The position numbers were made by a program, and so were the translations under genes. 59,449 nucleotides of DNA from an uncultured Desulfatiglans sp. (GTDB taxonomy: Bacteria > Desulfobacterota > DSM-4660 > Desulfatiglandales > HGW-15): assembly GCA_964610475.1 (NCBI GenBank), contig CAZSZQ010000002.1:1-59449 (forward strand), written 5' to 3'. The notes under the pieces were generated by a model. That model worked only from the letters and a program-made list of their open reading frames with translations, was not told the DNA's origin and ran no database searches. This document shows, piece by piece, positions 1,404 through 37,487 of this stretch (its first letter is position 1; every line of letters begins with the position of its first letter).

Positions 1404-1490
1404 TAAGAAAGTTTCTTGACTTTTAATGTGTATTATTTACACTCGGAGATTCTAACCAGTAAGAAATTCAGGAGGTAATGTTATTAACAA

Positions 1491-19360: not shown

Positions 19361-21685
19361 CTAATTCTTTTTTCTCCATATTACACCATCAGCCGTATCT
19401 GTTACTTCAACTCCTTTTATTTTCAGGAGTTCATCACGGATACGGTCAGATGTTTCCCAGTCCTTTGCCCTCCGTGCCTCTTCTCTTTTATTAATAAGTT
19501 CGATTACTTCCTTGTCGGATATGTTTGCTTCCAGATCAAATACCGCAATTATAGAATTTATTTCATTAAGGCATGCGATGATCTTTTGTCTGTCACTCAG
19601 AGAAAGGCCGCTGTTGTCCATGATAATGTTTAATTTATTCATAAATATAAATACCGCAGCAAGTGCAGGCGCAGTATTCAGGTCATCATCCATGAAATCA
19701 TTAAAGGTGCTCCTTAGATCATAAATATGCTGATCTATATCCAGATTGGATTCAGTTGTATTGCAGCCGTATAATCTCGCAATAAACTTATCCATATTTG
19801 AAAGGGTCTTTTTTGCTGTATCCAGTTTTTTCCATGAGAAACTCATCGGCTTTCTGTAGTGACTGCATAAAAGCCAGTATCTTATTTCTCTGCCGCTGTA
19901 TCCTTTTTTAAGTATACTTTTTATGTGATAGGACGAATCACTTACCTGAGATGACTTTTTACCATCTATCATCACAAGTTCGTTATGAAGCCAGTATCTG
20001 GCAGGGGATTTTCCTGTGACAGCTTTTCCTATGGCAATTGTATTTTCATGATGTGGAAATACAAGGTCTATTCCGCTTGTGTGGATATCATAGGTTTCAC
20101 CAAGATATTTCATAGACATCGCAGGGCATTCGAGGTGCCAGCTCGGTCTGATATTTCCCCACTTTGTCTGGTAAAAGATACCCTTTTTTAGCTCATTAAG
20201 TGTTGATCTTTTTAAAAGGGTAAAATCCCTGGGGTTATCCTTTTCATACTGTTCAAGATCAACTGTTTTACCGAGTTTTATCTTGTTAAGATCAATACGG
20301 CTGAGTTTGCCGTACTCCCTGAATCTGGCTATATTGAAATACAGTGACCTGAATTTTTCATATGCATATCCCTTTTCAAGGAGTTGACCGGCGAGCTCTA
20401 TCATATCATCAATATGTTCGGATGCCTTAGGGTATGCAGCAGCCCTTTTTATTCTTAAGATATCAAGGTCTTCCATGAATTCATTATAAAAGCCTTCCGT
20501 AAATTCCTTTAAGGGTTTTCCAGCCTTTTCGGCCCCCTGAATGGTTCTGTCATCAAGGTCGGTAACATTCAGTATATGGGTAACTTCAAACCCCTTTGTT
20601 TCGAGATAACGTCGCAGGAGGTCGGAAAAAACAAATCTCCTGCATTCACCTATATTAATGGGCTGGGCAAGGGTAGGGCCGCATGTATAAATCCTGACCC
20701 TGTTTTTATCAAGCGGGGTAAACTCCTCTTTTTTCCTGGTTACAGTATTATACAGGAGCTGGCCTGTTATTTTTTTATCTTCAAACAGGGCAGTACTGAG
20801 GTACCGTTCTCCACCGTCTGGAATAATAACAACGATAGTCCCCCTGTCCATTTCTTTCGCCACCCTTATTGCAGCAGCCATAGCAGCACCTGAACTCATG
20901 CCGCAGAAAATTCCCTCCTTTTTGGCAAGGAGCCGGGATGTCTGATATGCTTCTTCATCATCCACCCTTATAATACGGTCTACCCTGTTCTTGTCATATA
21001 TCCCAGGAGTATATGATTCCTTCATGTTTTTTAGCCCCTGTATCTTGTGACCAAGATAAGGTTCCATAGCTATTATCTGTATTTTACTGTCAAGTTCCTT
21101 TAACCGTCGCGATAATCCCATCAATGTTCCGCTGGTACCAAGGGATGCTACAACTGCATCTAATTCATGGTTGGTCTGTTCCCATATCTCCAGTGCAGTA
21201 CTGTTATAATGAGCCTTCCAGTTGGATTCATTATTGTACTGGTCAGCGAGCCAGTAATTTTCAGGCTCTTTCCTGATCAGGTCGTATACAAATTCTATAG
21301 CTCCATCCGTTGAAAGGTGTGGAGGTGTAAATTTGAGTTCCGCTCCCATGGCCCGGAGGATCTTTTTTCTCTCTTCGCTTACTGCTTCAGACATCACAAG
21401 CATAATCCTGTAACCTTTGACTGCCGCAACCATGGCAAGGCCTATACCCGTATTGCCGCTTGTGGCCTCAAGGATAGTCTTGTTTTTAGTCAGTTCGCCG
21501 TTTTTTTCGGCATCTTCAATCATTTGGAGTGCGGGGCGGTCTTTTACCGACCCGCCGGGGTTAAAGGATTCAAGCTTTGCCAGAATTTTAACATTTTTAT
21601 TGGGATTGAGCCTGTTAACGGGAATGACAGGTGTGTTTCCAATAAGATCAAGGATATTATCCGGTGTTTTATATACGTTATCCAT
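19361..21685 (-). CDS. fusion protein: intact CysK/CysM-type PLP cysteine synthase + full-length cysteinyl-tRNA synthetase-like body with degenerate HIGH and KMSKS motifs
   Basis: N-half has PLP lysine SVKDR, TSGNTG loop and GTSGT. C-half aligns to CysRS (YTCGPT, WHLECPAMSMKYLGETYDIHTSGIDLVFPHHEN, C-terminal EARRAKDWETSDRIRDEL). HIGH reads NIGE and KMSKS reads GKKSS. Confidence 0.8.
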   Translation of the reverse strand: MDNVYKTPDNILDLIGNTPVIPVNRLNPNKNVKILAKLESFNPGGSVKDRPALQMIEDAEKNGELTKNKTILEATSGNTGIGLAMVAAVKGYRIMLVMSEAVSEERKKILRAMGAELKFTPPHLSTDGAIEFVYDLIRKEPENYWLADQYNNESNWKAHYNSTALEIWEQTNHELDAVVASLGTSGTLMGLSRRLKELDSKIQIIAMEPYLGHKIQGLKNMKESYTPGIYDKNRVDRIIRVDDEEAYQTSRLLAKKEGIFCGMSSGAAMAAAIRVAKEMDRGTIVVIIPDGGERYLSTALFEDKKITGQLLYNTVTRKKEEFTPLDKNRVRIYTCGPTLAQPINIGECRRFVFSDLLRRYLETKGFEVTHILNVTDLDDRTIQGAEKAGKPLKEFTEGFYNEFMEDLDILRIKRAAAYPKASEHIDDMIELAGQLLEKGYAYEKFRSLYFNIARFREYGKLSRIDLNKIKLGKTVDLEQYEKDNPRDFTLLKRSTLNELKKGIFYQTKWGNIRPSWHLECPAMSMKYLGETYDIHTSGIDLVFPHHENTIAIGKAVTGKSPARYWLHNELVMIDGKKSSQVSDSSYHIKSILKKGYSGREIRYWLLCSHYRKPMSFSWKKLDTAKKTLSNMDKFIARLYGCNTTESNLDIDQHIYDLRSTFNDFMDDDLNTAPALAAVFIFMNKLNIIMDNSGLSLSDRQKIIACLNEINSIIAVFDLEANISDKEVIELINKREEARRAKDWETSDRIRDELLKIKGVEVTDTADGVIWRKKN

Positions 21686-22311: not shown

Positions 22312-23970
<1,659 letters not shown>

Positions 23971-24006
23971 GATCCTGTTCCATATTTTTAAAAGTAGTAA
24001 TTATAA

Positions 24007-24039
24007 GCTGTATCCGGTTTGCCGGATGCAGCTTTTTTT
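24007..24039 (+). terminator. rho-independent terminator after groEL
   Basis: Stem GCTGTATCCGG / CCGGATGCAGC (one G:T pair), loop TTTG, T7 tail. Confidence 0.75.
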
Positions 24040-24242
24040 ATGGCAACATCATGGATTTATTAAAGAAAATAAGACTCTTTTTTGAAATTGATACGTGATT
24101 TTTTCTGTTTGATGCAGCCTGATGGTTATGAGGTGCAGGATTCGGGTTATAACCTGACAGTGTGCTGTGTTGCGTTTTACATTTTTTAAATATGAAGATT
24201 TGAGGCCGGCGATTAAAATCGGTGTTCTTCTTTTATTACTTA

Positions 24243-24271
24243 TTGACACACAACGGTCTCCTTCATATACT
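24243..24271 (+). promoter_or_regulatory. near-consensus sigma-70 promoter for selenoprotein paralog 1
   Basis: TTGACA (24243-24248), exactly 17-nt spacer, TATACT (24266-24271). Confidence 0.55.
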
Positions 24272-24312
24272 GGGTTCTGAAGATAGAACAGTTATCAATT
24301 ATTTAACAACAT

Positions 24313-26040
24313 GTGAAATGGAGGCGCAAATTGACTAGAAAGATTTTTTCTATAATGTTAACTATTTTTTTCATTGCTGCCTGTTCGACACAAGATTCTA
24401 CGGAAAAAAATCCGGGAGTTTCAATACCAGTTGCTCCGCAAAATAAAATCAGTGTGTTGAATCCGACTCCGCCCAGTAAAATGGTTGATCGCATACCGCT
24501 TACACCAAGGCTCGATACGCTTGAAGGTAAGACGATATTCCTGGTGGATATCGGTTGGGGAGGTGCCCAGGCGGCTCCCAGCATTTATGAGGAAATGAAA
24601 GCCTGGTTTGGCCAGAATATGCCGAGTGTGAAGATAGAAATCCGAAAAATAAAGGGCTTTTACATGCAGGATCAGCCGGAACTCCTTAAGGAGATATCCG
24701 AAAAGGGTAATGCCGCCATGTTCGGCATTGCAGGCTGAGACAGCTGTACATCGGCCGTGAGCCGAAATTGTCAACAACTGGAACAGCAGTACAATATCCC
24801 CACTGTCGGGGGTTCTGCAGCCAATATTATCGATTATGCCATTAATTACAACTTCAAGTATACAAACGGATCACCTATCAGGTATATAGCCTTTCCTTTC
24901 CCGGTAGCGGGTCAGCCCCAATCTGTCCATCATAAATATATCTTTGAGAGCAATGATGTGGTAAGCGGTAAACCCATGATGCAGGCATTTATAGATGCAT
25001 TGACTGCTCCTCTTACCGAGAAAGAGAAATACAAAGGGCCGGTGCCTGAGGCTGAAATCGCACAAGAACCAGGCGAACCACACCTTATCGGGCCGGACAC
25101 CGAAGAGAACCTGCAACAGCTTTTCATAGATAAAGATTGGACAGACTATCTGCCGATTGTCCTTCCGACCGAGGAAAGGGTGGCAAAGATGCTTGAAGGC
25201 ACTACCCGCAAACCCGAAGAGGTTATAAAGGTATTGGACTGGCCCGGCGGCAGACGGGAGGTTACTGTAGAAAGGGTGGCAACATGCGCTGTTATGTCAG
25301 GAGCCAGGCCGGAACATCTTCCTGTAATCCTTGCACTGGCCAACCATATACCCTTTGGAAATTCAACCTCTTCCATGGCCAACATGATCCTGGTCAACGG
25401 TCCCATACGGGATGAAATAGGTATGAATTACGGCCACAACGTTATGGGACCCCATAATCTGGCCAACTCGGTTATAGGCCGCAGTTACACGATAATGTCA
25501 AAAACCATCGGTGGACTGCACAGTAAAAAGACAACCTGGAGCACCCTTGGGAGCACCATGCAGTACAACAATGTCTGCATCGCAGAAAATGAGGAGGCGC
25601 TGCCGGAAGGTTGGAAACCTTTTCACGTGCAGGCGGGGTTTAAACCAAATGATAGTGTTTTAACCGTGGCAACCGGGTGGTCATACATCTCATGCGTAAC
25701 AGAGGCCCAGAGGGAGTATCCGGTATATATGTGGATGGGCGACCTGATGAAAGCCCTTACTATGCCAAGACCCACGGTCATTATGGATCCTTCTGTTGCA
25801 AAACTTTTGAAGGATACCTATAAATATGATACCAAAGAGCAGCTTGCTAAGTGGTTTGCAGAAAATGTTGAAAAGATAAGGCAACCCTCAGGTGAGGTGA
25901 CGAAGCCCTTCCAGGAGGCATCAATTAATATAATCGTTACCGGTGGCGGCGGCCAGACAACATGGTTTGTGACGGATTTCGGGCTGAGCCGGAATATGGT
26001 TACGCAGGGAGGAAGTACACTCATAGACGACTGGAGGTAG
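24313..26040 (+). CDS. paralog 1: UxxC (UDSC) selenoprotein N-module fused to a conserved C-module of unknown function; predicted lipoprotein; TGA 24736-24738 read as Sec
   Basis: Track ORFs 24313-24738 and 24757-26040 share a frame, separated only by a TGA and 6 sense codons. The downstream piece has no SD. Likely true start is TTG 24331, 6 nt after GGAGG, giving MTRKIFSIMLTIFFIAAC (lipobox IAAC). Homologous along its length to 32997-34754. Confidence 0.8.
24741..24780 (+). promoter_or_regulatory. SECIS-like stem-loop downstream of UGA (paralog 1)
   Basis: Apical hairpin TCGGC-CGTGA-GCCGA (24751-24765) begins 12 nt after the UGA. Outer helix CAGCTGT (24741-24747) / ACAACTG (24774-24780) pairs 6 of 7. 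Confidence 0.6.
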
Positions 26041-26056
26041 TATAAAAAATAGGGTT

Positions 26057-26100
26057 CAAGGGCTGGAGTGAAAAACAGACTGCACAGCCCTTGCCCTTTT
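26057..26100 (+). terminator. candidate terminator between convergent genes
   Basis: 9-bp stem CAAGGGCTG / CAGCCCTTG with a 19-nt loop, followed by CCCTTTT. Confidence 0.4.
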
Positions 26101-26152
26101 GAAAGATTCACTGCCCTGGTATAAAAAACCGGAGAGGGGCATTTTAATAATT

Positions 26153-27115
26153 TTAGACAGCCTCAATTGTTGAAGGCGGTTTTGTAGCGATATTATATGT
26201 AACGCTAACAATACCGGGTACCTCACTTATTATATCGGCAGCAAGTTTTTCAAGCAGATCAAATGGAAGACGTGTGGGTGAGGCAGTACGGGCATCCACA
26301 CTGTTCCAGCATCTGACCTCTATCTGTTGCCCAAAATCGCGCTGTCCGTTGCGCATGCCGGTAACCCTGTCTTCATGAAGAATTCCCATATACTGAAAGG
26401 CCCCGGAGTTTTTCAGCCACTTTTCCACAACAGCTGTTGCTTTACGAACAGTCTCTATTCTCTCTGGTGTTGCCTCTCCTATAACCCTCGCTGCCAGGGC
26501 CGGTCCCGGAAAGGGGATGCGGTCAAAGAGTGCGGAAGGCAGGCCAAGAGCCTTCCCAATGATCCTGACACCGTCTTTACGCAGTTGTATCATCGGCTCA
26601 ATAATCCCGTAGCCGAATGATTCCATAGGATCTATTCCCAGCTGCTCAAAGACATTATGCTGACGCTTAATGCCTGCAACGGTTTCATCCACGTCCGTAA
26701 GAATTGTTCCCTGAAGAAGAAATTTTGCGCCGCTTTCTTTAACAATACGGCCAAAGACCTTCCTGTAAAAGGCTTCCCTGATAGCCTCCCTCTTTTGTTC
26801 AGGATCAGTTACTCCTCTGAGTTCTGAGAAGAATTCATCTCTTGCATCAATAACATCCACTCTGACACCGAGATCCCTGAAAAAGGCAACAACCTCCCCA
26901 GGTTCTCCCTGACGCATGAGGCCATTCTCAATAAAGACCGTCTTCAGTTTACTCCCCAGTGCCCGATGACCCAGCATCGTCACTGTGGATGAATCAACAC
27001 CCCCCGACAAAGCGTTTATTGCCATGCTGTCTCCAACAATCTCTTTGATTTCCTTTATCTTTGCCTCAATGAACTTTTCGGGGTTAATTTCCTGTACTTT
27101 GATTTCCTTGATCAT
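26153..27115 (-). CDS. stand-alone GMP synthase-type ATP pyrophosphatase (GuaA C-terminal/subunit B-like PP-loop protein), no GATase domain
   Basis: PP-loop SGGVDSS; dimerisation/C-terminal motif ATKPPSTIE; 320 aa. No glutamine amidotransferase domain is encoded adjacent. Confidence 0.75.
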   Translation of the reverse strand: MIKEIKVQEINPEKFIEAKIKEIKEIVGDSMAINALSGGVDSSTVTMLGHRALGSKLKTVFIENGLMRQGEPGEVVAFFRDLGVRVDVIDARDEFFSELRGVTDPEQKREAIREAFYRKVFGRIVKESGAKFLLQGTILTDVDETVAGIKRQHNVFEQLGIDPMESFGYGIIEPMIQLRKDGVRIIGKALGLPSALFDRIPFPGPALAARVIGEATPERIETVRKATAVVEKWLKNSGAFQYMGILHEDRVTGMRNGQRDFGQQIEVRCWNSVDARTASPTRLPFDLLEKLAADIISEVPGIVSVTYNIATKPPSTIEAV

Positions 27116-27842: not shown

Positions 27843-29015
27843 ATGACTGAAAAAAAGGTGGTGATGCCTGAAACGACAATCTCTCAGGAAATGATAGAGA
27901 ATATGCGCGCTAAACTGGGCCTTAAGTTAAGAGTTGACGATAGCACTCATAATGAGTACGCCACTCGAATGGCAATCCTGAAATTCACTGAAGGCATAGG
28001 AGATCCGAATCCTTTATGGACCGATGAAGAGTATGCAAATAAAAGCCGGTTTGGCAGTATCATCGCACCTCCGTCCTTCGTATGGGCATGTTTTGCTCAT
28101 GTAATGTTCGGGTGGAGAGGGCTTGGAGGTTTTCATGCAGGATGCGATGTGGAATTCATAAAGCCGATATTCATAGGTGACAAAATATCAGCAGAGTGTA
28201 TATTTAAAAGTTTTGATGGACCTAAAGAAAGCAGCTACGCTGATGAAACCGTAATAGATCATTTTGAGAATCAATATTGGAACCAAAATGGAGATTTGAT
28301 TGCAAGGTATCATTGGTGGGTAGTTCATTTTGCCAGGGGAAAAGCGCGGAAGAAAAAGAAGTTTACAGACCTTGAATTGCCACACCCGTGGACTGAGGAC
28401 CAATTACAGCAAATCGAGCAGGAAATTCTTTCTGAGAAAATCAGGGGTTCCAAACCTCGCTATTGGGAGGATGTTGAAATTGGCGATGAGTTTGGCCCGG
28501 TAATAAAGGGACCCCTTGGTGTAACTGATGAGATAGCTTATATCATTGGTGGCGGGGTACCTATTCCGAGATTGCAGGCCCATGGTGTTGCTCTGCAATC
28601 CTATAAAAAACACCCTGCCTGGATGTTCCGTGATCCTAATACCATGGGATACGAGCCGATCTTTGCTGTTCATTATAATAAATCAGCGGCAAACGCAATG
28701 GGGCTTCCACAGCCCTATGATATAGGTATGCAGAGGCATTGCTGGGGTGTACATTTAATAACAAACTGGATGGGAGATGATGCCTGGCTAAAGAGAAGTT
28801 ATACGGAATATAAAAAGTTTGTATATTTATCGGATGTGGTCCGGTTAAAAGGTAAAGTTGTAGACAAATTTATTGATGACGAAGGGGACTATTGCGTGCG
28901 TGTCGATAGATTTACCATAAATCAAAGGAATGAAAACGTGATGCCAGGTTATGCAATTGTTGCTCTTCCCTCAAAAATTGAAAAGTCGTCTCCCCTGGAT
29001 AGAAGAATAACTTAA
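27843..29015 (+). CDS. double hot-dog MaoC-like acyl dehydratase / enoyl-CoA hydratase
   Basis: 390 aa with an N-terminal MaoC-N-like segment (FTEGIGDPNPLWTDEEYA...IAPPSF) and a second hot-dog half. RBS aagagg. Family-level call only. Confidence 0.55.
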   Translation: MTEKKVVMPETTISQEMIENMRAKLGLKLRVDDSTHNEYATRMAILKFTEGIGDPNPLWTDEEYANKSRFGSIIAPPSFVWACFAHVMFGWRGLGGFHAGCDVEFIKPIFIGDKISAECIFKSFDGPKESSYADETVIDHFENQYWNQNGDLIARYHWWVVHFARGKARKKKKFTDLELPHPWTEDQLQQIEQEILSEKIRGSKPRYWEDVEIGDEFGPVIKGPLGVTDEIAYIIGGGVPIPRLQAHGVALQSYKKHPAWMFRDPNTMGYEPIFAVHYNKSAANAMGLPQPYDIGMQRHCWGVHLITNWMGDDAWLKRSYTEYKKFVYLSDVVRLKGKVVDKFIDDEGDYCVRVDRFTINQRNENVMPGYAIVALPSKIEKSSPLDRRIT

Positions 29016-29062
29016 TATAAGGTCTTTTTAATCAGACCAAAATAAATGTGAGGGTGATATTC

Positions 29063-31276
29063 ATGTTAGAAAACAATATACTCGATAAATTTTTTCATCC
29101 AAAGTCAATAGCTGTAATAGGAGCATCTGAAAATGTATTATCATATGGATCACGCTATATTCAGGCATTGATCGATTTCGGGTACAAAGGAAAGATATAT
29201 GCGGTCAATCATAATGGGGAAAAGGTACTTGGCCATAAAATTTACAGGAATATTGCTGACGTCCCAAAACCGGTTGACCTGGTATTTATTACAATCCCTG
29301 CCCGATTCGTTGTTGATGTCATAAAGGAGTGCATTGCAGAAGGTATCAAAGCTGCTGTTATATTTACAGCTGGATTCGGTGAAACCGGGGAAGAAGGCCT
29401 GAATATTGAGAACGAGATTGTTAAAGAGGCCGAAGGCAGGATGCGAATTATAGGGCCGAATTGCTTCGGTACATATTGTCCCAGCGGCGGAATTACATTA
29501 CTTAATGGAAATAACTTTTCAAAGGAACCCGGGTCAGTGGCATTGACTGCGCAAAGCGGCCAATTGTCCGAGGTTTTAATACCTCGGGCCCAGGGAGAAG
29601 GTCTCAGACACTCTAAATTTATCAGTTATGGGAATGCAAGCGATATTAATGAGGCAGATCTTCTTGAATATTTAATGAATGATAAAGATACAAAAATAAT
29701 TACATCTTATCTGGAAGGCGTTAAGGATGGCCGCCGTTATTTTAACATAACCCGAAAGAATCCGGGGAAAAAGCCGATTATCATCTGGAAAGTCGGTCTG
29801 AGTCAAATCGGTGCCGCTGCTTCCTCTTCACATACTGGCTCTCTTGCAGGAACAAGCGCGGCATGGGATGCCTTTTTTCATCAGACGAATGCAGTTAAGG
29901 TTACCAACCTGGATGAACTTATCGACACAATAACATCTTTTTCCTGTATGCCGGACGGTTGCGGACCAAGAGTGGCCTATGTCAGTGGCGGAGGTGCAGG
30001 CACTGTTATTGGAGCTGATGCATGTGAAGCTGCGGGAATGGAGATGCCGCAATTTTCTCCCAATACAGAGAAACAACTGCGTGAACTTTTTCCAAGCATT
30101 GGCACATCCCTGAGGAATCCAATTGATATTGGAAATCCCCACCCACAGTTAGACCTTTTAAAGTCGCTTCTGGAAATTATGTCCGCAGACAAAAATGTTG
30201 ATGTAATAGTGGTAAGAGGAATATTGTTCTCTGTAAAAACGAGTCAGATATTCAGCGGCACGACCGCACCTTCTGAAAATGATCAGCGCGACTTACTTGA
30301 TATTCCGGTTAAAGTGATGAAGAAATATAAAAAACCTATAACCATTATTTTACCGGAATATGTGACAAGCGTAGAAGCTGTAGATATTGAAGAAGATAGA
30401 AGAAAAATCCGTGATTATTTCTTTACTCACGGTATTCCGGTTTATCTCTCGGAACAGAGAGCCTTTGGCGCCCTTGCCCATCTCGCCAAATACAGACAGG
30501 TCAACGGGAAAACTGTAAAAGCTGTTGTTGCCGGAAAAAATGAAAATGAGAGGGCAATAACAAATGGCAGAAAACAGTTATTAAGTATTTTAGGAGAAAC
30601 AGAAAACTCAATACTGGATGAGATACAATGTAAAACCGTATTAAAAAGCATGGGAATAAAAGTATCCGAACCGGTATTGACCGGGTCAAAAACCGAAGCT
30701 GTCTCTGTGGCAAAGAAAATGGGATACCCGGTTGTAATGAAAGTAATTTCACCGCAAATCACTCATAAAAGCGATATTGGCGGAGTTAAACTGAATCTCA
30801 TGAACGATAGTCAGGTCAGGACAGCTTATACTGAAATCATGAAAGCAGCCGCAAAAAAGGCATCAAAAGCAACAATTGATGGCGTATCCATTCAAAAAAT
30901 GGCAAAGCCGGGACTTGAGCTTGTAATAGGCATGACAAAAGATCCGCAGTTCGGACCAATGCTGATGTTTGGTTTGGGAGGGATATTTATAGAAGTATTA
31001 AAAGATGTTTCCTTCAGGATTCTACCTCTATCAAGGAAAGATGCCCTAGATATGATACGTGGGATCAGGTCATATCATCTGCTTGAAGGGTTCAGGGGCC
31101 AACCAGAAATTGATATTAAATATCTGGAAGAATTGTTGCTGAAACTTTCCGGATTTATTATGGATACTCCTGAGATAAAGGAGATGGATATTAATCCGTT
31201 GATTGCTTATGAAAAAGGAGTTATTGCCGTTGACGCAAGAATTATTCTGGAAGAGAGAGAAGTGAGTCAAAAATAA
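29063..31276 (+). CDS. ADP-forming (NDP-forming) acyl-CoA synthetase, fused alpha/beta domains
   Basis: CoA-binding start FFHPKSIAVIGAS; GPNCFG; TAQSGQL; phospho-His loop SSSHTGSLAG; C-terminal ATP-grasp. ATG 29063 follows GAGGG; the track ORF starts at GTG 29048. Confidence 0.85.
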   Translation: MLENNILDKFFHPKSIAVIGASENVLSYGSRYIQALIDFGYKGKIYAVNHNGEKVLGHKIYRNIADVPKPVDLVFITIPARFVVDVIKECIAEGIKAAVIFTAGFGETGEEGLNIENEIVKEAEGRMRIIGPNCFGTYCPSGGITLLNGNNFSKEPGSVALTAQSGQLSEVLIPRAQGEGLRHSKFISYGNASDINEADLLEYLMNDKDTKIITSYLEGVKDGRRYFNITRKNPGKKPIIIWKVGLSQIGAAASSSHTGSLAGTSAAWDAFFHQTNAVKVTNLDELIDTITSFSCMPDGCGPRVAYVSGGGAGTVIGADACEAAGMEMPQFSPNTEKQLRELFPSIGTSLRNPIDIGNPHPQLDLLKSLLEIMSADKNVDVIVVRGILFSVKTSQIFSGTTAPSENDQRDLLDIPVKVMKKYKKPITIILPEYVTSVEAVDIEEDRRKIRDYFFTHGIPVYLSEQRAFGALAHLAKYRQVNGKTVKAVVAGKNENERAITNGRKQLLSILGETENSILDEIQCKTVLKSMGIKVSEPVLTGSKTEAVSVAKKMGYPVVMKVISPQITHKSDIGGVKLNLMNDSQVRTAYTEIMKAAAKKASKATIDGVSIQKMAKPGLELVIGMTKDPQFGPMLMFGLGGIFIEVLKDVSFRILPLSRKDALDMIRGIRSYHLLEGFRGQPEIDIKYLEELLLKLSGFIMDTPEIKEMDINPLIAYEKGVIAVDARIILEEREVSQK

Positions 31277-31300
31277 TATACCCGGAAGAAATCGAGATAG

Positions 31301-32344
31301 TTACTCCTCTATCTTTTTGGTCACAACACCTGTTCGTATGGCATAGGTTGGACAGAAGAGAGTATGTTTACCTGCCCCACCAGCGACCACAACAATTAGA
31401 TCCTCAGGCTTCTGGATTACAGGGATCAGATCTTCTTCCCCATAAGAGGTAAACTGCAGCTCCTGATGCTTTTTCGAATAATTTTTTTTCGGGATTCGTG
31501 CATTCCTGTGGATGTATTCCTTTAATTGTGCCTTTGAATAGCCGCCGTTCGCTATGATACGGGCGTGTTCAGGAGCGGGAATGAGAAGCGGCTCACCGCT
31601 CTGGTAGAGAATGTTATTATTGCCCTGGGTTGCGATGGATGCAGCATAGGTCACGAGCAGATTCTCGGCATCATCAGCCGTATGATCATTGATATTGTGC
31701 GGATTTTCTACCCCATTCACAGTGACCACGCTGTCGGTCTTTTCATACCCCATCTCCACGTGGAGAGGCTCCCACGGATTTTCTTCCTCGTTTTCTGCGA
31801 TGCAGAAAGAGTACTTGCTTGGTTGTCCATGAGTGGAAAGATCGAAGGTTCCCGGGAGACCTCCTCCTATATTAAGAAGTATGAGGCGCACAGCCCTTCC
31901 AATAGTGGCGTTAGCCCGGTTCGCCGGGCCAAATAGATTACATCCACAGTTCATACCTATGCTATGCCGGATAGGACCGTTTACAATAACAATTGGCGCT
32001 ACGGGATGGGTTGTTGCCTGAATGTTATGTAGCCCGAGAGAGGGTTCCGCCAGGGCCTGTACTGCCGCCACAAGAACAGGCATATATTCGGGGAGACATC
32101 CTGCCATTACAGCATTGATAGCTACAAGACTCACTGTGGCATCGTTCCCGGAGGGGGGTAGAATGCCGAGAACTTCTTCGGGATTCTTTTTGGTCCCCTT
32201 GAGCATTCTGGTCACTCGCTCCTCCGTAGGAGGGATTACAGGTAACCCGTCAGTCCATCCACGCTCGTGATAGATGTTATAGATCTCTTCCGGGTTATCG
32301 GGAACTTCCAGCATATTTATATTAAATTTTCCGCTATCTGTCAT
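31301..32344 (-). CDS. paralog 3, C-module as a stand-alone protein (conserved domain of unknown function)
   Basis: Aligns with the C-terminal roughly 350 aa of 24313-26040 and 32997-34754. Shared motifs: GWTDGLPVIPPTEERV, INAVMAGCLPEYMPVL, NGPIR, ANATIGRA, CIAENEEE. RBS AGGAGA. Confidence 0.75.
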   Translation of the reverse strand: MTDSGKFNINMLEVPDNPEEIYNIYHERGWTDGLPVIPPTEERVTRMLKGTKKNPEEVLGILPPSGNDATVSLVAINAVMAGCLPEYMPVLVAAVQALAEPSLGLHNIQATTHPVAPIVIVNGPIRHSIGMNCGCNLFGPANRANATIGRAVRLILLNIGGGLPGTFDLSTHGQPSKYSFCIAENEEENPWEPLHVEMGYEKTDSVVTVNGVENPHNINDHTADDAENLLVTYAASIATQGNNNILYQSGEPLLIPAPEHARIIANGGYSKAQLKEYIHRNARIPKKNYSKKHQELQFTSYGEEDLIPVIQKPEDLIVVVAGGAGKHTLFCPTYAIRTGVVTKKIEE

Positions 32345-32382
32345 TATTATCTCCTGAGCAGATCTATCTTTTTTTGACTTAA

Positions 32383-32952
32383 TTATCGGGCCCCCTGAGC
32401 ATTAGCATTTCCAACATTTCCAACAAGAGTGCAGATAATTTCTTTAATGGCGCCATCTGCCTTTTTAATGATCTCCGTGTCATTATTGAGGGCGATGGGG
32501 TGGGTTACGACGACGAGTGGCATGTCGGTTAACCTTTTTGCCTTGGCTGTAGTCCTCAGAAGGGCCGAAAAGCTTGTGGTGCAGACTGTTGTGGTAGGAA
32601 GGTTTCTCTTTTCGAGTTCAATGGAACTCTGGATACACCAGAGCGAACATCCCCCTCAATCTCCGGTGCCGATGACTGCACCATCACAGGTAGTAACGAT
32701 ATGATCAACAACTTCCGGCTCAATTACTTTTTTGGTGTCTCCTCTGTCACTTATCCATTCAATTCCTGACACTCCATATTGATCAGTGAGCAGTTCAGAG
32801 ACTCTTTTAAGAAAAATGTCACCTCCCAGTTTCCCGTTCCAGATTACAGCAAGCCGTTTCCCCTGGAGTGAGGTGAGACGCATGGCTGCCGCCACAGACT
32901 TTTTGACTCTCTTTACTCCAGTGGGAATATACACCATTATCTTTTCACCCAT
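32383..32952 (-). CDS. paralog 3, N-module: 189-aa UxxC (UGGC) selenoprotein; TGA 32656-32658 read as Sec
   Basis: Track ORF stops at TGA after ...AVIGTGD. The frame stays open for 90 more codons (GGCSLWCIQSSIELEKRNLP...) to TAA 32383-32385, and that extension is homologous to the post-Sec region of paralog 2. Otherwise 270 nt would be unexplained. RBS AGGAGG before ATG 32952. Confidence 0.75.
32627..32643 (-). promoter_or_regulatory. SECIS-like hairpin downstream of UGA (paralog 3)
   Basis: mRNA CUCUGG-UGUAU-CCAGAG, a perfect 6-bp stem starting 12 nt after the UGA. Confidence 0.6.
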
Positions 32953-32996
32953 GAATTTTCCTCCTGCTGTCTAAAACCATTTGCAACGGTTTTCTA

Positions 32997-34754
32997 TCAT
33001 CTCATTTTTACCACCTTTAATTTCTCAGTCCAGTCCACCGGAAGCTCAATACGCTTACTTGTAGTATAACCCAGACACCCGTTGCTGATAAATATATGAG
33101 CATTTGTTCTCCAGGGATCTCCGCTGACAGTGATTACGAAATCATCAGGCGAGCATACAATCGGCACCAGTCGATCAGGATCTTCAGACTCACAGAACTG
33201 TGGTCCAAGTACCCCTTCCTCTACATAATCGCAGAGTGAGACATGGTCAGGAGCAAAATTTGTCCATCCCCAGTTTAACTTTTCAACTTTCCATGCGGGT
33301 ATTCTAGCGTGATCATAAAGGTACTGTTTTACATCTTTTTTCGACCAGCCGCCTTTTGCGATTGTTTCGGCCAGCACGGGAGTAAGTATGAGATGAGGTC
33401 TTTGACTGCAGCCGATTGCAGGTCTGGGAAGGACCGTAAACCATATCTCCCATCCCATATAGCCGGTAAAACGGTCGGCGATATAGGTAAGTATTTCTTC
33501 CGGCTTCTGTCCGTATGCCCCGGTAATTACTCCTCCGCTGACATGTCTTGCTACGGTTACAACATTTTCACCTGCCTTAAAGCCCTGGTCAACACTCAGG
33601 GGATGCCATCCTATGCGTGCAATTGTGTCTTCATTCTCGGCCAGGACCACTTTCCATGTACCGCCAAAGGTCGCCATATCAGTTTGATGAAGATGAAATC
33701 CGGCTACATTCCTTAACATGAGTCTCCAGAAACGACCTATTGTTGTGTTCGCCTGAAATCCGTCACGCAATGCCCCCTGTTCGTAATTGAAGTCAAGCTC
33801 TTTAATTATGGGACCATTGAGGGTGATCAGCGTTTCCGAGCCGGGAGTATTGCCGCTGTGCTCAACACCATATTGCGGATCTGCCATTGCCTCCGTAAGA
33901 GCAATAAGCACCGGCATATATTCCGGTCTGCATCCGGCCATTACTCCGTTTACAGCGGTATTCCATATGGTTGCCTGTCGGCTGTCAGGAAGTAAAACCC
34001 CGATCACTTCCTTGGGTGCCCTGTCCGTAAAGGACATGAACCGTTCAACATTTTCCAGTGTCGGAGGAATAATCGGCAAAGAATCGTTCCACCCTCTGGA
34101 TAAAAAGAATCTGTTTACCTCTTCATATGAACCCTCAAAAACGATGCTTTCAAAAGTTGGCTCAGGTCTCTCTTTCTTGAGCAAAGGTACCTGCCCGGTC
34201 AACCCCTCAATAACTAAAGGTAATGTAGTGGTTTCGATGTTTGTCTTCAATTCTTCCGGGGTCTGTGTGTCAACATGACCGGGTATCATGGCAATAGCCA
34301 TATTGGGAAATCCGACGCCGCTCGCGACTGCCTGAGCACCCCTAACAAAGGATTCACAGATTAGAGGCACAACCGGAACACCGGCTTTTTCTACCACTGC
34401 ACTCGCCCGCATCACGGCAGACGTACAGCTTCCTCAGCATCCCACTGCTGATATTACTGCATCACAACCATATTTCTCCAGCCTGGCCGGTAACTCAGCC
34501 AGTACCTTTGCTTCATCTTTGTCATGAATATTTCCGAAATTATCATAGCTGACGAATTTGAGCTCTGAAAATTCCTTTGATAACCGGTCCTGAATTATCT
34601 TAAAAATACTGTCACCACGGAATACATAGTCCCATAACAGACCGACTGTCTTTCCGTTGAGTGTATCGAGGCGTTTTGAGATGCTTGTCGCTTTTATTGT
34701 TTTTTTCCCTTTGGGCCAGACCACCTTGTAGATACCTTTATTGGCCGCTTCCAT
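32997..34754 (-). CDS. paralog 2: UGSC selenoprotein N-module fused to the conserved C-module (585 aa); TGA 34434-34436 read as Sec
   Basis: Track ORFs 34434-34754 and 32997-34415 share a frame (339 nt offset), separated by a TGA and 6 sense codons. Junction reads AVISAVGC-U-GSCTSAVMRAS. No SD precedes the downstream piece. RBS GGGAGG before ATG 34754. Confidence 0.8.
34404..34423 (-). promoter_or_regulatory. SECIS-like hairpin downstream of UGA (paralog 2)
   Basis: mRNA CGUCUGC-CGUGAU-GCGGGCG, 7 bp including two G:U pairs, starting 10 nt after the UGA. Loop CGUGA(U) matches the paralog 1 loop CGUGA. Confidence 0.55.
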
Positions 34755-34877
34755 TCGAATCGCCTCCCGTATTTCTTATTTCATGTGATTCATGAGATGC
34801 TTTTGCTGCTTTTTTCTATGACGTTTATAACCTCAATCTTTAAGTGCATCTTAATCCGGAGAAGACTGTTTTAATTA

Positions 34878-35816
34878 TTAATTTGAATTTTTGTTTAAAG
34901 TCTGTAGGAATCTTTGCGCCGCCACTGCGGCGATAGCCCCGTCGCCCACTGCTGCAGATATCTGCTGGGGAGAATACTGCCGCAGGTCACCAGCCGCAAA
35001 TATACCCGGAACAGTTGTCTCCATATTTTGATTTATTTCAATTCGGCCTGAGGCATCGAGGGGCACAATACCATCGAAATAGGCCGTATTAGGCACAATC
35101 CCGATATGAACTAGGACTCCCTCTACCTGGAGAGTCTCTTTTTGGGATGTGCCGATATCTTCCAGTACAATACCTTTTACATTATTTTCGCCTGTAATCT
35201 CAATAACCTTTTGCCCGCGGCGAATCTCGATTTTTGGGTCGAAAGCTGCTCTTTCCTGATAGATTGGTGTGGCGGTCAGATTAGGCAGGGCTTCTATAAT
35301 TATTACTTTTGATGCAAGTTTGGACATATAAAGCGCCTCGGTTATACCTGCGTCTCCTCCTCCGCATACGGCCAGCACGCGGTTTTCGAACTGTCCCCCT
35401 TCACAGAGCGCACAATGTATCACGCCCCGCCCGTAAAATTTATCTTCGCCCGGAACATTCAGTTTTCTTGATGATGATCCACAGGCTATGATTATGGCCA
35501 TTGAAGTGTAATTTGTTCCATTTTTACATTTTACATTGAAGCAACTGGAATATGAAGCAATGTCCGTCACTTCACCCTGTTCCAGTTCTACATCATATTT
35601 CATGGCCTGACCTATCATCTCGGTGGCGAGTGCTGTCCCTTCTATTCCTTCGGAAAAACCGGGATAATTTTCAACCCAGGCGATATTCAGCAACTGCCCG
35701 CCAAACTGATCTTTTTCCACTAATAAAACCCGGTATTTGGCCCTGGCCAGATAAATACCGGCGGTTATTCCGGATGGCCCTGCTCCAATAATAATTACAT
35801 CGTAATCTGTTACCAC
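34878..35816 (-). CDS. thioredoxin-disulfide reductase-like FAD/NAD(P)H flavoprotein
   Basis: GAGPSG FAD motif; GGQL...ENYPGF; redox-active CALCEG (canonical TrxB has CATCDG); second dinucleotide motif GGGDAG; GDLR near the C-terminus; 312 aa. Confidence 0.85.
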   Translation of the reverse strand: MVTDYDVIIIGAGPSGITAGIYLARAKYRVLLVEKDQFGGQLLNIAWVENYPGFSEGIEGTALATEMIGQAMKYDVELEQGEVTDIASYSSCFNVKCKNGTNYTSMAIIIACGSSSRKLNVPGEDKFYGRGVIHCALCEGGQFENRVLAVCGGGDAGITEALYMSKLASKVIIIEALPNLTATPIYQERAAFDPKIEIRRGQKVIEITGENNVKGIVLEDIGTSQKETLQVEGVLVHIGIVPNTAYFDGIVPLDASGRIEINQNMETTVPGIFAAGDLRQYSPQQISAAVGDGAIAAVAAQRFLQTLNKNSN

Positions 35817-35878
35817 AGCTATAAACTCGTACTAGAATTTTAGTATTGTCCCGTTTTACTTTAATTTAGTAATTTCTT

Positions 35879-37438
35879 TTACTCTTTTTTATCAATAAGT
35901 TCTTTGCAATTTTTCTTTAGTATTGCTTTATCGATTTTTCCCACTGCATTTTTAGGTAACTCGTCTAAAAAATCTATGGACCGGGGTTTTTTATACCCGG
36001 CCAACCGGGAGGCGCAAAACTCCATCAGTTCTTTTTCGCCTATTTTATCTCTAAATTCCGTCTCCAGTGCGATAACCGCCTTTACTGATTCTCCCCATTC
36101 CCTGTCCGGTATGCCTATAACAGCAGCTTCATAGACTGCGGGGTGCTGGTATAACACCTCTTCAACCTCTCTGGTTGAAACATTTTCTCCCCCGCTGATT
36201 ATTATGTCTTTTTTCCTATCAACAATAAAGATATAACCGTCCTGGTCCCTGTAGCCTATATCACCCGTATAAAGCCAGCCATCTTTAAAGGTTTCTGCCG
36301 ATTCCTTGGGCAACTTCCAATAGGACCGGGCGATGTTATCGCCCTTACCCGTAATTTCGCCAATCTGCCCATCAGGGACTTCCTTTCCTTCCATATCAAC
36401 AATAGCAATTTCAACGCCCATGGCATCTTTTCCTACTGAACCGAGTTTTTCTGCCATAGTACCTTCAAGGGAGTGTTCACTACTGCGGAAATGAAGGAGG
36501 GCGCCATTAGCTTCAGTAGCACCCAGACCTGTTGTAAGCCGGTGAGATCCAAGAATTTTCATAGCTGCTTTAAGCTGTTCTTTGGGAATCGGAGCCCCTG
36601 CGTACATGATGAGTCTAATGCTTTCAAGATTATAGGATGATATATTGGGATCAGAGATAATTCTCCCGAGTACTGTTGGGACCAGGTTGATAAATGTAAT
36701 TTTTCTATTTTGTATAATTTTATACATCGGATCCAGATCGAATCTGGGCATCAGGACAGTCGTACCTCCCCGGTAAACCATACTCAACATGGGCCATAAC
36801 CCGCCAAGGTGGAAGAGCGGCATTGCAAGAAGACTGATATCTTCAGGAACAAGATCCAGTTCAAGGCACATCGTGTTGGTATTTGCCATTATGTTCCGAT
36901 GTGTTGATATAACGCCCCTTGGAAAGCCCGTGGCTCCGCTTGTGAACATAATCATGGCCATATCATCGGGCTCTACTGTTACAAGGGGTTCAGAATCTGA
37001 AGCACTTGAGATAAGATCTTCATAGGAGAGCACATTATCTCCGTAATTTCCCGTTGATATGTAATGGTTGATCCCGGCAATGTTCTTCCGTATTTTTTGA
37101 ACAGTTGCTTCCATTTCTTTGTCATAGATAAGAAGAGTCACTTCAGCATTTCTGAGAACATAGGATGCTTCATCACCGGAGAAGCGTGCATTTACCGGAA
37201 CGGCGATTGAACCGATCTTTGCAATGGCAAAATAGAATTCTATGAAATGGTGGGAGTTGTATCCCATAAAGGCTATCTTATCACCCTTGGTTATTCCTAT
37301 CCCCAGAAGGGCATTTGCCAGCCTGTTAACTCTTTGATTAATTTCTCGATAATTATACTCTTTTTCTCCGTCAATAACCGCTACCTTCCGGTTGCGAATC
37401 CTCGCTTCTCTAAGTATTATGTCACCGATCAGCATCAT
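35879..37438 (-). CDS. AMP-forming acyl-CoA ligase (adenylate-forming superfamily)
   Basis: AMP-binding motif FTSGATGFPRG; YGATE-like GLGATE; TGDIGYRDQDGY; C-terminal LPKNAVGKIDK. Confidence 0.85.
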   Translation of the reverse strand: MMLIGDIILREARIRNRKVAVIDGEKEYNYREINQRVNRLANALLGIGITKGDKIAFMGYNSHHFIEFYFAIAKIGSIAVPVNARFSGDEASYVLRNAEVTLLIYDKEMEATVQKIRKNIAGINHYISTGNYGDNVLSYEDLISSASDSEPLVTVEPDDMAMIMFTSGATGFPRGVISTHRNIMANTNTMCLELDLVPEDISLLAMPLFHLGGLWPMLSMVYRGGTTVLMPRFDLDPMYKIIQNRKITFINLVPTVLGRIISDPNISSYNLESIRLIMYAGAPIPKEQLKAAMKILGSHRLTTGLGATEANGALLHFRSSEHSLEGTMAEKLGSVGKDAMGVEIAIVDMEGKEVPDGQIGEITGKGDNIARSYWKLPKESAETFKDGWLYTGDIGYRDQDGYIFIVDRKKDIIISGGENVSTREVEEVLYQHPAVYEAAVIGIPDREWGESVKAVIALETEFRDKIGEKELMEFCASRLAGYKKPRSIDFLDELPKNAVGKIDKAILKKNCKELIDKKE

Positions 37439-37487
37439 TTTCTATTTCCAGTTTTTTTGACTGTTGATATATAATTCCAGTCCTGTT

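Follow-up and report, generated by a model that had tools for sequence, protein, structure and literature searches.

[quoted passage not shown] The GOS survey guessed a thioredoxin-like fold for UGSC and reported a 'UGSC/Unknown_1' fusion (PMC2398784), and a 2026 review still gives the function of the family as unknown (PMC13188914). In the published UGSC descriptions that we examined, we found no mention of an N-terminal export signal. Here we analyse a 59,449-nucleotide stretch of DNA from an uncultured Desulfatiglans sp. (the window), which carries three UGSC paralogs, and concentrate on paralog 1. We estimate a probability of roughly 0.7 that positions 24331-26040 form one monocistronic gene for a 569-residue exported selenoprotein. 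Judged by its sequence, the product would be a member of the known UGSC family that carries an export signal and is fused to a conserved C-terminal domain (the C-module).

The UGSC-family domain of paralog 1 covers residues 42-195 (24454-24915, + strand) and matches Pfam PF24696 straight across the UGA codon, with an E-value of 6.2e-10 and 39.9 bits against a gathering threshold of 25; the trimmed domain scores 43.2 bits. Against the NCBIfam equivalog NF041046, paralog 1 reaches 29.7-33 bits, under the 125-bit cut-off, and paralogs 2 and 3 (69.9 and 111.4 bits) also fall under it. The U-D-S-C of paralog 1 aligns with U-G-S-C in paralog 2 and U-G-G-C in paralog 3, such that the UxxC pair is retained and Gly is exchanged for Asp. 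Paralog 1 is therefore like the UGSC family in its PF24696 match, in the position of Sec within UxxC, and in the fusion to a domain of unknown function; it differs by having U-D-S-C for U-G-S-C, a low NF041046 score, and an N-terminal export signal. When we sought to identify 'Unknown_1' in the GOS supplements (PMC2398784), the C-module motifs had no match there. Pfam thioredoxin models did not match the UGSC domain even at E-values up to 10. In an AlphaFold2 model of a Cys-containing homologue (P0104), the UGSC domain was modelled at a pLDDT of 30-60, too poor to assign a fold, and a fold search with this model gave no match at E <0.1.

The coding sequence of paralog 1 runs on the + strand from TTG 24331 to position 26040 and contains 569 codons plus a TAG stop. 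It is a single reading frame with a lone in-frame TGA at 24736-24738, and the ORFs 24313-24738 and 24757-26040 on either side lie in the same frame. A Shine-Dalgarno GGAGG, read from the sequence, is found at 24320-24324 (+ strand) with a 6-nt spacer to the TTG at 24331-24333. Across 42 orthologues the aligned start codon is TTG in 34 and ATG in 8, the Shine-Dalgarno before it is mostly GGAGG with a 6-nt spacer (variants AGGA, GAGG and GGAG), and several orthologues have an in-frame stop immediately 5′ of it. Start codon, Shine-Dalgarno and N-terminal signal peptide are kept in 44/44 sequences of the paralog 1 group. The conservation of Shine-Dalgarno and start position in every orthologue bears out TTG 24331, the start chosen in the original prediction.

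A sigma-70-type promoter, with TTGACA (24243-24248), a 17-nt spacer and TATACT (24266-24271), matches at 11 of 12 positions on the + strand and is the top promoter-like site within 23900-26300. Its hexamers recur with at least 10 of 12 matches in 22 of the 42 orthologues, mostly 56-65 nt 5′ of the start, with a divergent spacer sequence between them. Upstream, a strong groEL terminator lies at 24005-24034. Downstream, a terminator-like hairpin is present as had been claimed, at 26051-26097 instead of 26057-26100, with a + strand dG of -22.7 kcal/mol and a z-score of -3.3. This hairpin is common to paralog 1 and the convergent gene 26153-27115; its U-tract has just 4 U on the + strand and is better on the - strand, so it probably also terminates the convergent gene. 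The conserved promoter, the upstream groEL terminator, the downstream hairpin with its convergent gene, and the lack of a conserved neighbour across 45 loci agree with the earlier proposal of a monocistronic gene with its own promoter.

The in-frame UGA would encode Sec136 of a redox motif, U-D-S-C (24736-24747, + strand), in which Cys139 is encoded at 24745-24747 and whose context is FGIAG-U-DSCTSAV. We find TGA at the identical site in 42/42 orthologous loci from Desulfatiglandales, Desulfobacterales and Acidobacteriota. The full-length homologue P0104 has Cys at this site (GISG-C-DSC). Among 97 cluster representatives with a complete N-module match, 82 stop exactly at the Sec site and 9 continue with Cys; Met, Leu or Gln also occur there in some variants, which are non-redox forms. 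Protein-level conservation (D-[SG]-C-[TI]-S-A) extends from the UGA up to the next potential start. A reassigned code with TGA as a sense codon was rejected because TGA terminates 7 of the 42 large ORFs in the window. None of selA, selB, selC, selD or tRNA-Sec was found within the 59-kb window, where an Rfam scan and a tRNA scan gave no matches; its three UGA-containing UGSC genes provide indirect support for Sec machinery.

The UGA is followed by a SECIS-like hairpin with the core UCGGC-CGUGA-GCCGA (24751-24765, + strand), which a possible 3-bp lower stem widens to 24748-24771. Its stem is 5 bp long and its loop reads CGUGA, which puts G and U at loop positions 2 and 3; it lies ~15-17 nt after the UGA (17 nt in the SECIS-model test), and the 40-nt fold has an MFE of -8.8 kcal/mol. 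The published bacterial SECIS model calls for a loop of 3-9 nt, a stem of 4-16 bp, G in loop position 1 or 2, a distance of 16-37 nt after the UGA, and an MFE of -7.5 kcal/mol or lower (PMC13188914), and the paralog 1 hairpin falls within all of these limits. Across the 42 orthologous loci, synonymous variation is almost absent precisely over the hairpin, with a codon entropy of no more than 0.17 bit at codons +5 to +8 compared to ~0.9-1.7 bit at flanking 4-/6-fold degenerate codons. Two changes in or adjoining the stem retain or lengthen the pairing. No covariation was seen in the stem among orthologues because the stem is invariant, and the support for a SECIS element is suppressed synonymous change, measured as codon entropy, rather than compensatory changes. 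Comparable hairpins follow the UGA in paralogs 2 and 3. Together, the conserved TGA, the frozen hairpin and the Cys homologue point to a single real selenoprotein, as originally predicted, and not to two genes. On this comparative evidence paralog 1 is a selenoprotein with the conserved UGA and Cys homologues expected of SelB-dependent decoding.

Translation of paralog 1 starts MTRKIFSIMLTIFFIAAC. A signal peptide, MTRKIFSIMLTIFFIAA, and then the lipobox Cys18 (I-A-A-C) occupy 24331-24384 on the + strand, with Cys18 encoded at 24382-24384. Our signal calls come from a hydrophobicity scan and a pattern rule after PROSITE PS51257. The maximum 12-residue Kyte-Doolittle (KD) value of the paralog 1 signal is 2.70, with two K/R among the first six residues, and in all 44 group sequences an n-region rich in K/R is followed by a hydrophobic stretch whose 12-residue KD is at least 2.1, so the predicted signal peptide is present and conserved. 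The N-termini of paralogs 2 and 3 are not hydrophobic (maximum 12-residue KD of 0.16 and 0.92), in agreement with the prediction that these proteins have no signal peptide. Since the signal is conserved in all 44 sequences and missing from paralogs 2 and 3, export of the paralog 1 protein appears well supported. A protein with such a signal should have its selenium redox site at work outside the cytoplasm.

The PS51257-type rule asks for K/R in the first 7 residues, an uncharged h-region, and [LIVMFWSTAG]2-[LIVMFYSTAGCQ]-[AGS]-C with the Cys at 15-35, a pattern to which paralog 1 conforms (MTRK-IFSIMLTIFF-I-A-A-C18). It is passed by 7 of the 44 sequences (WIN, which is the window, and L002, L004, L011, L016, L031 and L032). 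The other 37 fail it, and 9 of them have Tyr, Ser, Ile, Trp or Phe in place of the Cys; the failing relatives show AYS↓SE or AYA↓AE, as is usual for SPase I sites. The original prediction of a lipoprotein is thus fitting for the IAAC of the window, but the conserved trait of the group is export: with the lipobox absent from 37 relatives, lipidation is not a family trait, and most relatives resemble proteins cleaved by SPase I. The lipobox Cys is joined to the UGSC domain by a flexible tether, STQDSTEKNPGVSIPVAPQNK (24385-24447, + strand), in which 8 of 21 residues are Pro, Ser or Thr, as expected from the predicted Pro/Ser/Thr-rich linker. Compared with most orthologues, the tether adds 11-14 residues, and among close orthologues it occurs only in L002, L011 and L016, all three with an IAAC lipobox. 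The distant relatives L049 and L050 have the lipoboxes LAGC and LTSC followed by long linkers, and L048 has a Tat-like signal. We consider lipidation of the window protein probable, as a variant of a few lineages including this one, and UGSC proteins that bear export signals, whether Sec-type, lipoprotein or Tat-like, are widespread, with related versions in many anaerobes.

The C-module is a conserved domain of ~325 residues and unknown function (25063-26037, + strand). Its homologue in paralog 3 is a free-standing protein of 347 residues, with which a search returned >8000 relatives. The C-module matched no family in Pfam or NCBIfam and no relative in the PDB by sequence. An AlphaFold2 model of its paralog 3 homologue, with a pLDDT of 93.3, had no significant match among PDB folds. 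Its resemblance to cyclic amide hydrolases of the Toblerone fold and to class I fumarate hydratase was marginal (E of at least 1.6e-3, TM of 0.27 or less), and we do not take it as homology. In a 137-sequence alignment, the columns of the motif C-I-A-E-N-E-E (25576-25596, + strand), which holds the family-wide conserved Cys416 and an invariant Glu-Asn, are invariant or nearly so. The C-module also has invariant Asp, Thr, Asn and Lys residues, which line a pocket together with the Glu-Asn pair, Cys319 and Cys416. A second motif, the helix C-A-V-M-S-G-A (25285-25305, + strand), contains the group-specific Cys319 (25285-25287) and Ala325 (25303-25305), the latter in place of a Cys of the cytoplasmic group. 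At these two columns the exported group has Cys then Ala in 18/18 sequences, and the cytoplasmic group has Asn then Cys in 117/117; paralog 2 of the window has Cys at the AGC column, as in the cytoplasmic type. The change from AGC to SGA that had been pointed out for paralog 1 is therefore systematic.

Paralog 3 consists of two separate genes, one for the UGSC domain (32952-32383) and one for the C-module (32344-31301), and so is not a fusion. A thioredoxin-reductase-like gene lies directly 5′ of paralog 2 and likewise adjoins the homologous cluster in L053. The UGSC domain of paralog 2 has weak matches to five GrdB, GrdH, GrdF and PrdB models (E 1e-4 to 2e-3) over the region with its Sec, at 17.5-18.7 bits against cut-offs of 65-775, which suggests a resemblance to selenoprotein B and not membership. 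The UGSC domain of paralog 1 did not match the GrdB/PrdB models. From several single assemblies, 2-3 UGSC copies were recovered. The ORF at 2590-4329 encodes the DsbD-type system recognised earlier, with a DsbD_TM match at E 5e-44 and thioredoxin domains. Its part as the reductant of paralog 1, put forward earlier as speculation, found no support in gene neighbourhood: the DsbD gene of the window is 20 kb from paralog 1, and the 6-kb surroundings of 45 loci showed no recurrent gene of the DsbD, CcdA or thioredoxin-like kinds. These 45 loci held no conserved neighbour hinting at a reductant or a substrate; the only recurrent neighbour is a small Tat-signal protein, present at 8 of them.

We propose that translation would begin at TTG 24331, that the hairpin at 24751-24765 would direct SelB to recode UGA 24736 as selenocysteine, and that the chain would pass the Sec translocon by way of the N-terminal signal peptide. 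In this genome, given the I-A-A-C lipobox, Cys18 would most likely be lipidated and the signal removed by signal peptidase II, leaving a ~21-residue tether to hold the protein at the periplasm-facing membrane surface. The mature protein would then combine the UGSC domain (Sec136-x-x-Cys139) with the conserved, enzyme-like C-module of ~325 residues. The selenol/thiol pair could act as a built-in nucleophile or two-electron donor for the C-module reaction, ending as a selenenylsulfide that would be re-reduced by an extracytoplasmic reductant, and paralogs 2 and 3 may carry out equivalent chemistry in the cytoplasm beside the thioredoxin-reductase gene. That the pair serves the C-module in this way is a tentative proposal, to which we give somewhat less than even odds.

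Different readings of the locus can be weighed against the same data. Gene callers divide every orthologue at the TGA, post-TGA fragments of ~374-433 residues make up 119 of the best 120 database matches, and TGA is an ordinary stop in this genome, all of which would fit a UGA 24736 that ends a 135-residue exported N-terminal protein and is followed by a separate cytoplasmic protein from GTG 24757. We regard this as very improbable, however, since the Pfam UGSC domain runs across the UGA, the six codons from UGA to GTG are conserved as protein, and GTG 24757 sits in the hairpin loop without a Shine-Dalgarno; moreover, the Cys-containing homologues read straight through and the UGA aligns with the Sec of the UGSC-family UxxC. 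Initiation at a downstream start such as Met9 or Met51 would give a cytoplasmic protein reducible by the thioredoxin reductase near paralog 2. TTG is a weak start codon and in-frame ATGs occur at residues 9 and 51, but the chance of such a start is slight: Shine-Dalgarno and start position are conserved in 42/42 orthologues, 8 of them with ATG, Met9 is not conserved, and Met51 falls within the UGSC domain and has no Shine-Dalgarno. In addition, the hydrophobic segment is kept across phyla despite sequence drift, which argues that the segment is translated.

Export without a lipid, through an SPase I cut or an uncleaved N-terminal anchor with the IAAC of the window incidental, is a more substantial, though still unlikely, alternative. 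I-A-A↓C is also acceptable as a -3/-1 pattern for SPase I, 37 of the 44 sequences fail the lipobox rule with 9 having another residue at the Cys and then AYS↓SE or AYA↓AE, and the signal of the Cys homologue P0104 (AGAAPSQAQ↓Q) is of the classical SPase I kind. However, the window protein has lost AYS/AYA and has an 11-14 residue Pro/Ser/Thr/Glu tether after the Cys, the usual layout of a lipoprotein; L002, L011 and L016 likewise have IAAC together with a tether, and the distant L049 and L050 combine clear lipoboxes with long linkers. Somewhat less likely again, the protein could be exported with a UxxC that is not the donor of the C-module and instead acts on envelope proteins as a DsbA/DsbG-like oxidoreductase or forms a metal or chalcogen binding site. 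UxxC is typical of thiol-oxidoreductase-like selenoproteins, a thioredoxin-like fold was the guess of the GOS survey, variants with Met, Leu or Gln at the Sec site are non-redox, and proteins of the exported group no longer have the AGC Cys of the C-module, its presumed partner. Against this, the fusion or adjacency of UGSC and C-module is conserved in cytoplasmic and exported forms alike, which points to functional coupling, no thioredoxin-family model matched, and the exported group gains another conserved Cys six residues away. We retain an exported selenoprotein, probably lipidated in this lineage, as the preferred reading.

These observations indicate that a large UGSC branch consists of exported proteins in which UGSC is fused to a conserved domain without a recognised fold, with Sec kept in ~85% of cluster representatives. 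Database annotation breaks every orthologue in two at the TGA, with the result that no protein entry shows signal peptide and catalytic domain together. In contrast to the cytoplasmic forms, which adjoin thioredoxin reductase, the exported forms do not, and a single Cys is cleanly relocated between the two groups. The compartment of action, this contrast and the relocated Cys offer experimental handles on UGSC function. A further question that follows is how a selenenylsulfide formed outside the cytoplasm would be re-reduced. As a speculative extension that we think has only a modest chance of being right, signal-bearing UGSC/C-module fusions might constitute a widespread, unrecognised class of extracytoplasmic selenoenzymes of anaerobes (Desulfobacterota, Acidobacteriota and others), in which a GrdB/PrdB-like Sec-Cys module on a catalytic domain of novel fold would perform reductive chemistry outside the cytoplasmic membrane and be recharged by an envelope reductant such as DsbD or CcdA, or by ambient sulfide.

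Several known systems share features with paralog 1. The glycine reductase system is reduced via thioredoxin and thioredoxin reductase. The selenoprotein B components of glycine, sarcosine, betaine and D-proline reductase (GrdB, GrdF, GrdH and PrdB) are like paralog 1 in having Sec in UxxC, a motif that the GOS table lists for PrdB (PMC2398784). These systems are cytoplasmic, whereas paralog 1 is predicted to be exported and has an unrelated partner domain; domain searches found no GrdE- or PrdA-type pyruvoyl subunit with paralog 1. A precedent for predicted Sec-containing lipoproteins and substrate-binding proteins is the SAO system (SaoB, SaoX and SaoC), whose selenoproteins have Sec-type or lipoprotein signal peptides and whose database entries are truncated at TGA (bioRxiv 10.1101/2022.07.06.499078). 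SAO proteins differ from paralog 1 in their ABC substrate-binding folds, CU or CC motifs and Firmicutes operons, and have no homology to UGSC or the C-module. Among periplasmic selenoenzymes, the Tat pathway exports formate dehydrogenase (FdnG/FdhA) as well as the [NiFeSe] hydrogenase, a lipid-anchored protein in Desulfovibrio vulgaris. These cofactor-bearing enzymes cross the membrane in folded form, and their Sec is a ligand to a metal. Paralog 1 differs from them in that its n-region (M-T-R-K-I-F) lacks the twin-arginine motif (S/T-R-R-x-F-L-K), no cofactor motif is recognisable, and its Sec lies in UxxC; it would resemble them as a periplasmic-side selenoprotein of an anaerobe, and one of the Tat-exported enzymes is likewise a lipoprotein.

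The mechanical ORF list gives two ORFs, 24313-24738 and 24757-26040, which are one forward-strand frame cut in two. The frame starts at a TTG at 24331, preceded by a GGAGG Shine-Dalgarno sequence (24320-24324) with a 6-nt spacer, ends with a TAG at 26038-26040, and contains a single in-frame TGA at 24736-24738. Translation with read-through yields MTRKIFSIMLTIFFIAAC-STQDSTEKNPGVSIPVAPQNK-ISVLNP…FGIAG-U-DSCTSAV…LIDDWR. Paralog 1 is one polypeptide with selenocysteine at residue 136 inside a UxxC motif. The coordinates in the original prediction are correct and the gene it described is confirmed as a whole; its interpretation was largely right, with qualifications on the lipid anchor and on DsbD.

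Comparison with related proteins identifies the UGA at 24736-24738 as a predicted selenocysteine codon. The Pfam UGSC domain PF24696 matches residues 42-195 of paralog 1 (39.9 bits; gathering score 25), and the domain therefore crosses the UGA at residue 136. This UGA is aligned to the selenocysteine codon of U-G-S-C in paralog 2 and of U-G-G-C in paralog 3, both in the same window. The comparison drew on 47 loci whose products are close relatives (50-88% identical over the C-terminal part); the source assemblies belong to Desulfatiglandales, Desulfobacterales, and Acidobacteriota, and one is labelled Omnitrophota. In all 42 loci with upstream DNA included, a TGA is found at exactly the same position with the protein sequence kept on either side. 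Orthologues of paralog 1 are systematically mis-called in protein databases: 119 of the 120 best matches are fragments of 374-433 residues that start just past the TGA. The single exception, P0104, is a full-length homologue (585 residues, 57% identity) carrying Cys at the selenocysteine site (GISG-C-DSC). An exhaustive search with the N-terminal fragment returned 97 cluster representatives with a match reaching this site; 82 end exactly there, 9 continue with Cys, and 6 continue with another residue. TGA is otherwise an ordinary stop in the source genome, closing 7 of 42 large ORFs in the window.

Folding places a hairpin, UCGGC-CGUGA-GCCGA, at 24751-24765 (+), 15 nt after the UGA. In the published model of bacterial SECIS elements (PMC13188914), a stem of 4-16 bp closes a loop of 3-9 nt that has a G at position 1 or 2 with a G or U after it; the hairpin lies 16-37 nt from the UGA and has an MFE of at most -7.5 kcal/mol. 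The paralog 1 hairpin satisfies these constraints, with a spacing of 17 nt and an MFE of -8.8 kcal/mol over 40 nt. No covariation was found in the stem among the 42 sequences because the stem is invariant in them. The evidence for a putative SECIS is instead the missing synonymous change over the hairpin: codon entropy is ≤0.17 bit at the Ser-Ala-Val-Ser codons +5 to +8, each of them 4- or 6-fold degenerate, compared with roughly 0.9-1.7 bit for comparable flanking codons. Two rare substitutions affect the stem or its immediate edge, and both leave the pairing intact or lengthen it (a G-U pair in locus L033, an additional C-G pair in locus L042); a third, in L008, touches a loop base only. Paralogs 2 and 3 have hairpins at equal distance from their UGA codons with a G in loop position 1 or 2.

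The TTG start proposed originally at 24331 is borne out by the orthologues, in which the aligned start is TTG in 34 and ATG in 8 of 42. All 42 have a Shine-Dalgarno sequence before it, mostly GGAGG with a 6-nt spacer, and several have an in-frame stop within a few codons 5′ of it. Conservation of the weak TTG (window 24331-24333) in 34 of 42 orthologues despite a near-perfect Shine-Dalgarno sequence suggests that selection maintains a specific rate of initiation, perhaps one matched to slow selenocysteine decoding or export. The signal peptide, claimed for paralog 1 and not for its two paralogs, also held when we compared 44 sequences (the window, the 42 loci, and P0104). Every sequence has 1-4 Lys or Arg in the first six residues and a hydrophobic stretch with a 12-residue Kyte-Doolittle mean of 2.1-3.6, versus 0.16 and 0.92 for paralogs 2 and 3. 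No twin-arginine motif is present, so predicted export through the Sec pathway is well supported.

Of the prediction that the protein is a lipoprotein, export stands in 44/44 sequences and the lipid anchor is probable for this lineage. Under a PROSITE PS51257-style rule that asks for a Lys or Arg among residues 1-7 and a run of six uncharged residues ahead of the lipobox, the window sequence passes with F-I-A-A-C and Cys at position 18, one of only 7 of the 44 sequences to do so. Most of the 44 read …LIAVCSTAYS|SEK or …AAYA|AE, with a Val at -1 that is atypical for a lipobox, and 9 have no Cys at the lipobox position; all of these have a good -3/-1 SPase I site a few residues further on. Two changes are common to the window and loci L002, L011, and L016, namely an I-A-A-C lipobox and replacement of the AYS motif by a tether of 11-14 residues rich in Pro, Ser, Thr, and Glu. 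A lipobox Cys followed by a flexible tether is the usual lipoprotein layout. The distant relatives L050 (LTSC|TTDRKD…) and L049 (LAGC|AGETTTETVTTT…) show it again, independently. Given the lipobox, the tether, and this repeated layout, we consider it likely, at about two in three, that the window protein is lipidated. The export signal is conserved, and its lipidated form would be particular to the lineage.

Paralog 1 is an independent transcription unit. On its 5′ side is a strong groEL terminator (24005-24034), and the promoter proposed at 24243-24271 (+), TTGACA-17-TATACT, outscores every other promoter-like site of the region (11/12 positions). Of 42 orthologues, 22 have the same hexamers at ≥10/12, usually 56-65 nt 5′ of the start and with a diverged spacer. 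The terminator hairpin claimed downstream is present, placed here at 26051-26097 (ΔG -22.7 kcal/mol, z -3.3), between paralog 1 and a convergent GMP-synthase-like gene (26153-27115). Its U-tract is far better on the minus strand (UAUUUUUUAUA), so the hairpin probably serves both genes or mainly terminates the convergent one. No neighbour gene is conserved across 45 loci, and some single assemblies yielded two or three copies of the exported-type gene. The 5′-UTR (window 24272-24319, with the corresponding stretch of L001-L046) also contains a motif of ~20 nt, 3′ of the -10 box and 5′ of the Shine-Dalgarno sequence, with an approximate consensus of TTATCAAyGAAyTAsCAACC (window copy ttatcaattatttaacaac, about 24293-24311). 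The motif is kept among orthologues of different phyla, and an operator or a regulatory RNA element are possible roles for it. In 8 of 45 loci, a ~220-residue twin-arginine-signal protein (TIGR01409 match, no Pfam family) is encoded within a few kb of the exported gene (L008 3209-3871, L010 4804-5637, L016 8449-9111, L017 1005-1730, and in L020, L025, L043, and L044).

The N-module of paralog 1 belongs to the UGSC family by Pfam and, like those of paralogs 2 and 3, scores far under the NCBIfam equivalog cut-off. The UGSC domain of paralog 2 (34754-32997) has weak, mutually consistent matches to five selenoprotein-B models (GrdH, GrdB, GrdF, PrdB, and TIGR01918; E 1e-4 to 2e-3) over the selenocysteine-holding region, and paralog 1's own domain matches none of the five. 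This hints at distant kinship between UGSC and the selenoprotein B module of Stickland reductases, a lead rather than family membership. The C-module family is very large and unannotated, with >8000 matches in our search, none carrying a precomputed Pfam domain. The AlphaFold2 model computed for paralog 3's free-standing C-module protein is confident (pLDDT 93.3, pTM 0.92) and had no significant fold match in the PDB (best E 1.6e-3, TM 0.26). In this family Asp, Thr, Asn, Asn, Glu-Asn, and Lys residues are invariant and a Cys in C-I-A-E-N-E-E is nearly so; all are kept in the exported group, and together they suggest an enzyme active site. The reported change of AGC to SGA is real and is half of a clean Cys swap: cytoplasmic-type C-modules have Asn…Ala-Gly-Cys in 117/117, and close exported types have Cys…[Ala/Ser]-Gly-Ala in 18/18. 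The swapped positions (window 25285-25305, alignment A4 columns 329 and 335) are six residues apart in one helix region. Neither Cys is present in the distant exported forms L049 and L050.

A thioredoxin-reductase-like gene, just under the TIGR01292 cut-off (318.9 bits against 343), lies immediately 5′ of paralogs 2 and 3, in a window cluster (27843-39053) with two AMP-binding ligases, an ADP-forming acyl-CoA synthetase, and a MaoC-like hydratase. In two unrelated genomes (L052 and L053), a C-module gene is clustered with a TGA-containing UGSC gene and DUF6282; L053 adds a Pyr_redox_2 reductase and a 2-hydroxyacid dehydrogenase, and L052 a synthetase and a hydratase of the same kinds as in the window. 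These recurring clusters support a redox-enzyme role for the UGSC/C-module pair in the cytoplasm and suggest a reductive pathway, so far uncharacterised, that acts on organic acids or on CoA esters. No redox or CoA-type cluster partners were found near the exported form.

Other arrangements were also seen. Signal-bearing and signal-less forms occur together outside the window in L034, an Acidobacteriota locus, where two tandem full-length signal-less paralogs (76-3502) lie just 5′ of the exported copy. Both have A-G-A in the C-module, and the one N-domain inspected (1775-3502) has a UGSC-like region without a selenocysteine or Cys motif; they may be non-redox variants. The UGSC protein encoded in L048 (136-714) carries a Tat-like signal (MNRRKLLSLLGMSPAILAG…) and has the motif H-U-S-T-C; about ten cluster representatives resemble it, and some UGSC selenoproteins may thus be exported folded. 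By translation alone, a 774-residue ORF in the window (19361-21685, -) appears to fuse a cysteine-synthase-like PLP-dependent domain to a cysteinyl-tRNA-synthetase-like domain.

In the mechanism we propose for paralog 1, the selenocysteine-Cys pair would act on the periplasmic side as a nucleophile or electron donor for the C-module reaction, cycle via a selenenylsulfide, and be returned to the reduced state by an envelope system. The DsbD gene at 2590-4329 originally suggested for this step is genuine, and we found no link to paralog 1 beyond its presence in the same genome; DsbD as the reductant is speculation, and periplasmic sulfide in a sulfate reducer is, in our view, equally plausible.

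A 2008 study (PMC2398784) reported the UGSC selenoprotein family along with UGSC fused to an unknown domain, which may or may not be the C-module of the window. SaoB, SaoX, and SaoC are precedents for exported, even predicted-lipoprotein, selenoproteins. Tat-exported formate dehydrogenase and [NiFeSe] hydrogenase are further exported selenoproteins, so selenoprotein export as such has precedents. The apparent novelty, which the papers searched do not mention, is that a large, deeply conserved UGSC branch is extracytoplasmic and invisible to current annotation, a branch that includes both paralog 1 and distant forms with lipoprotein or Tat-like signals.
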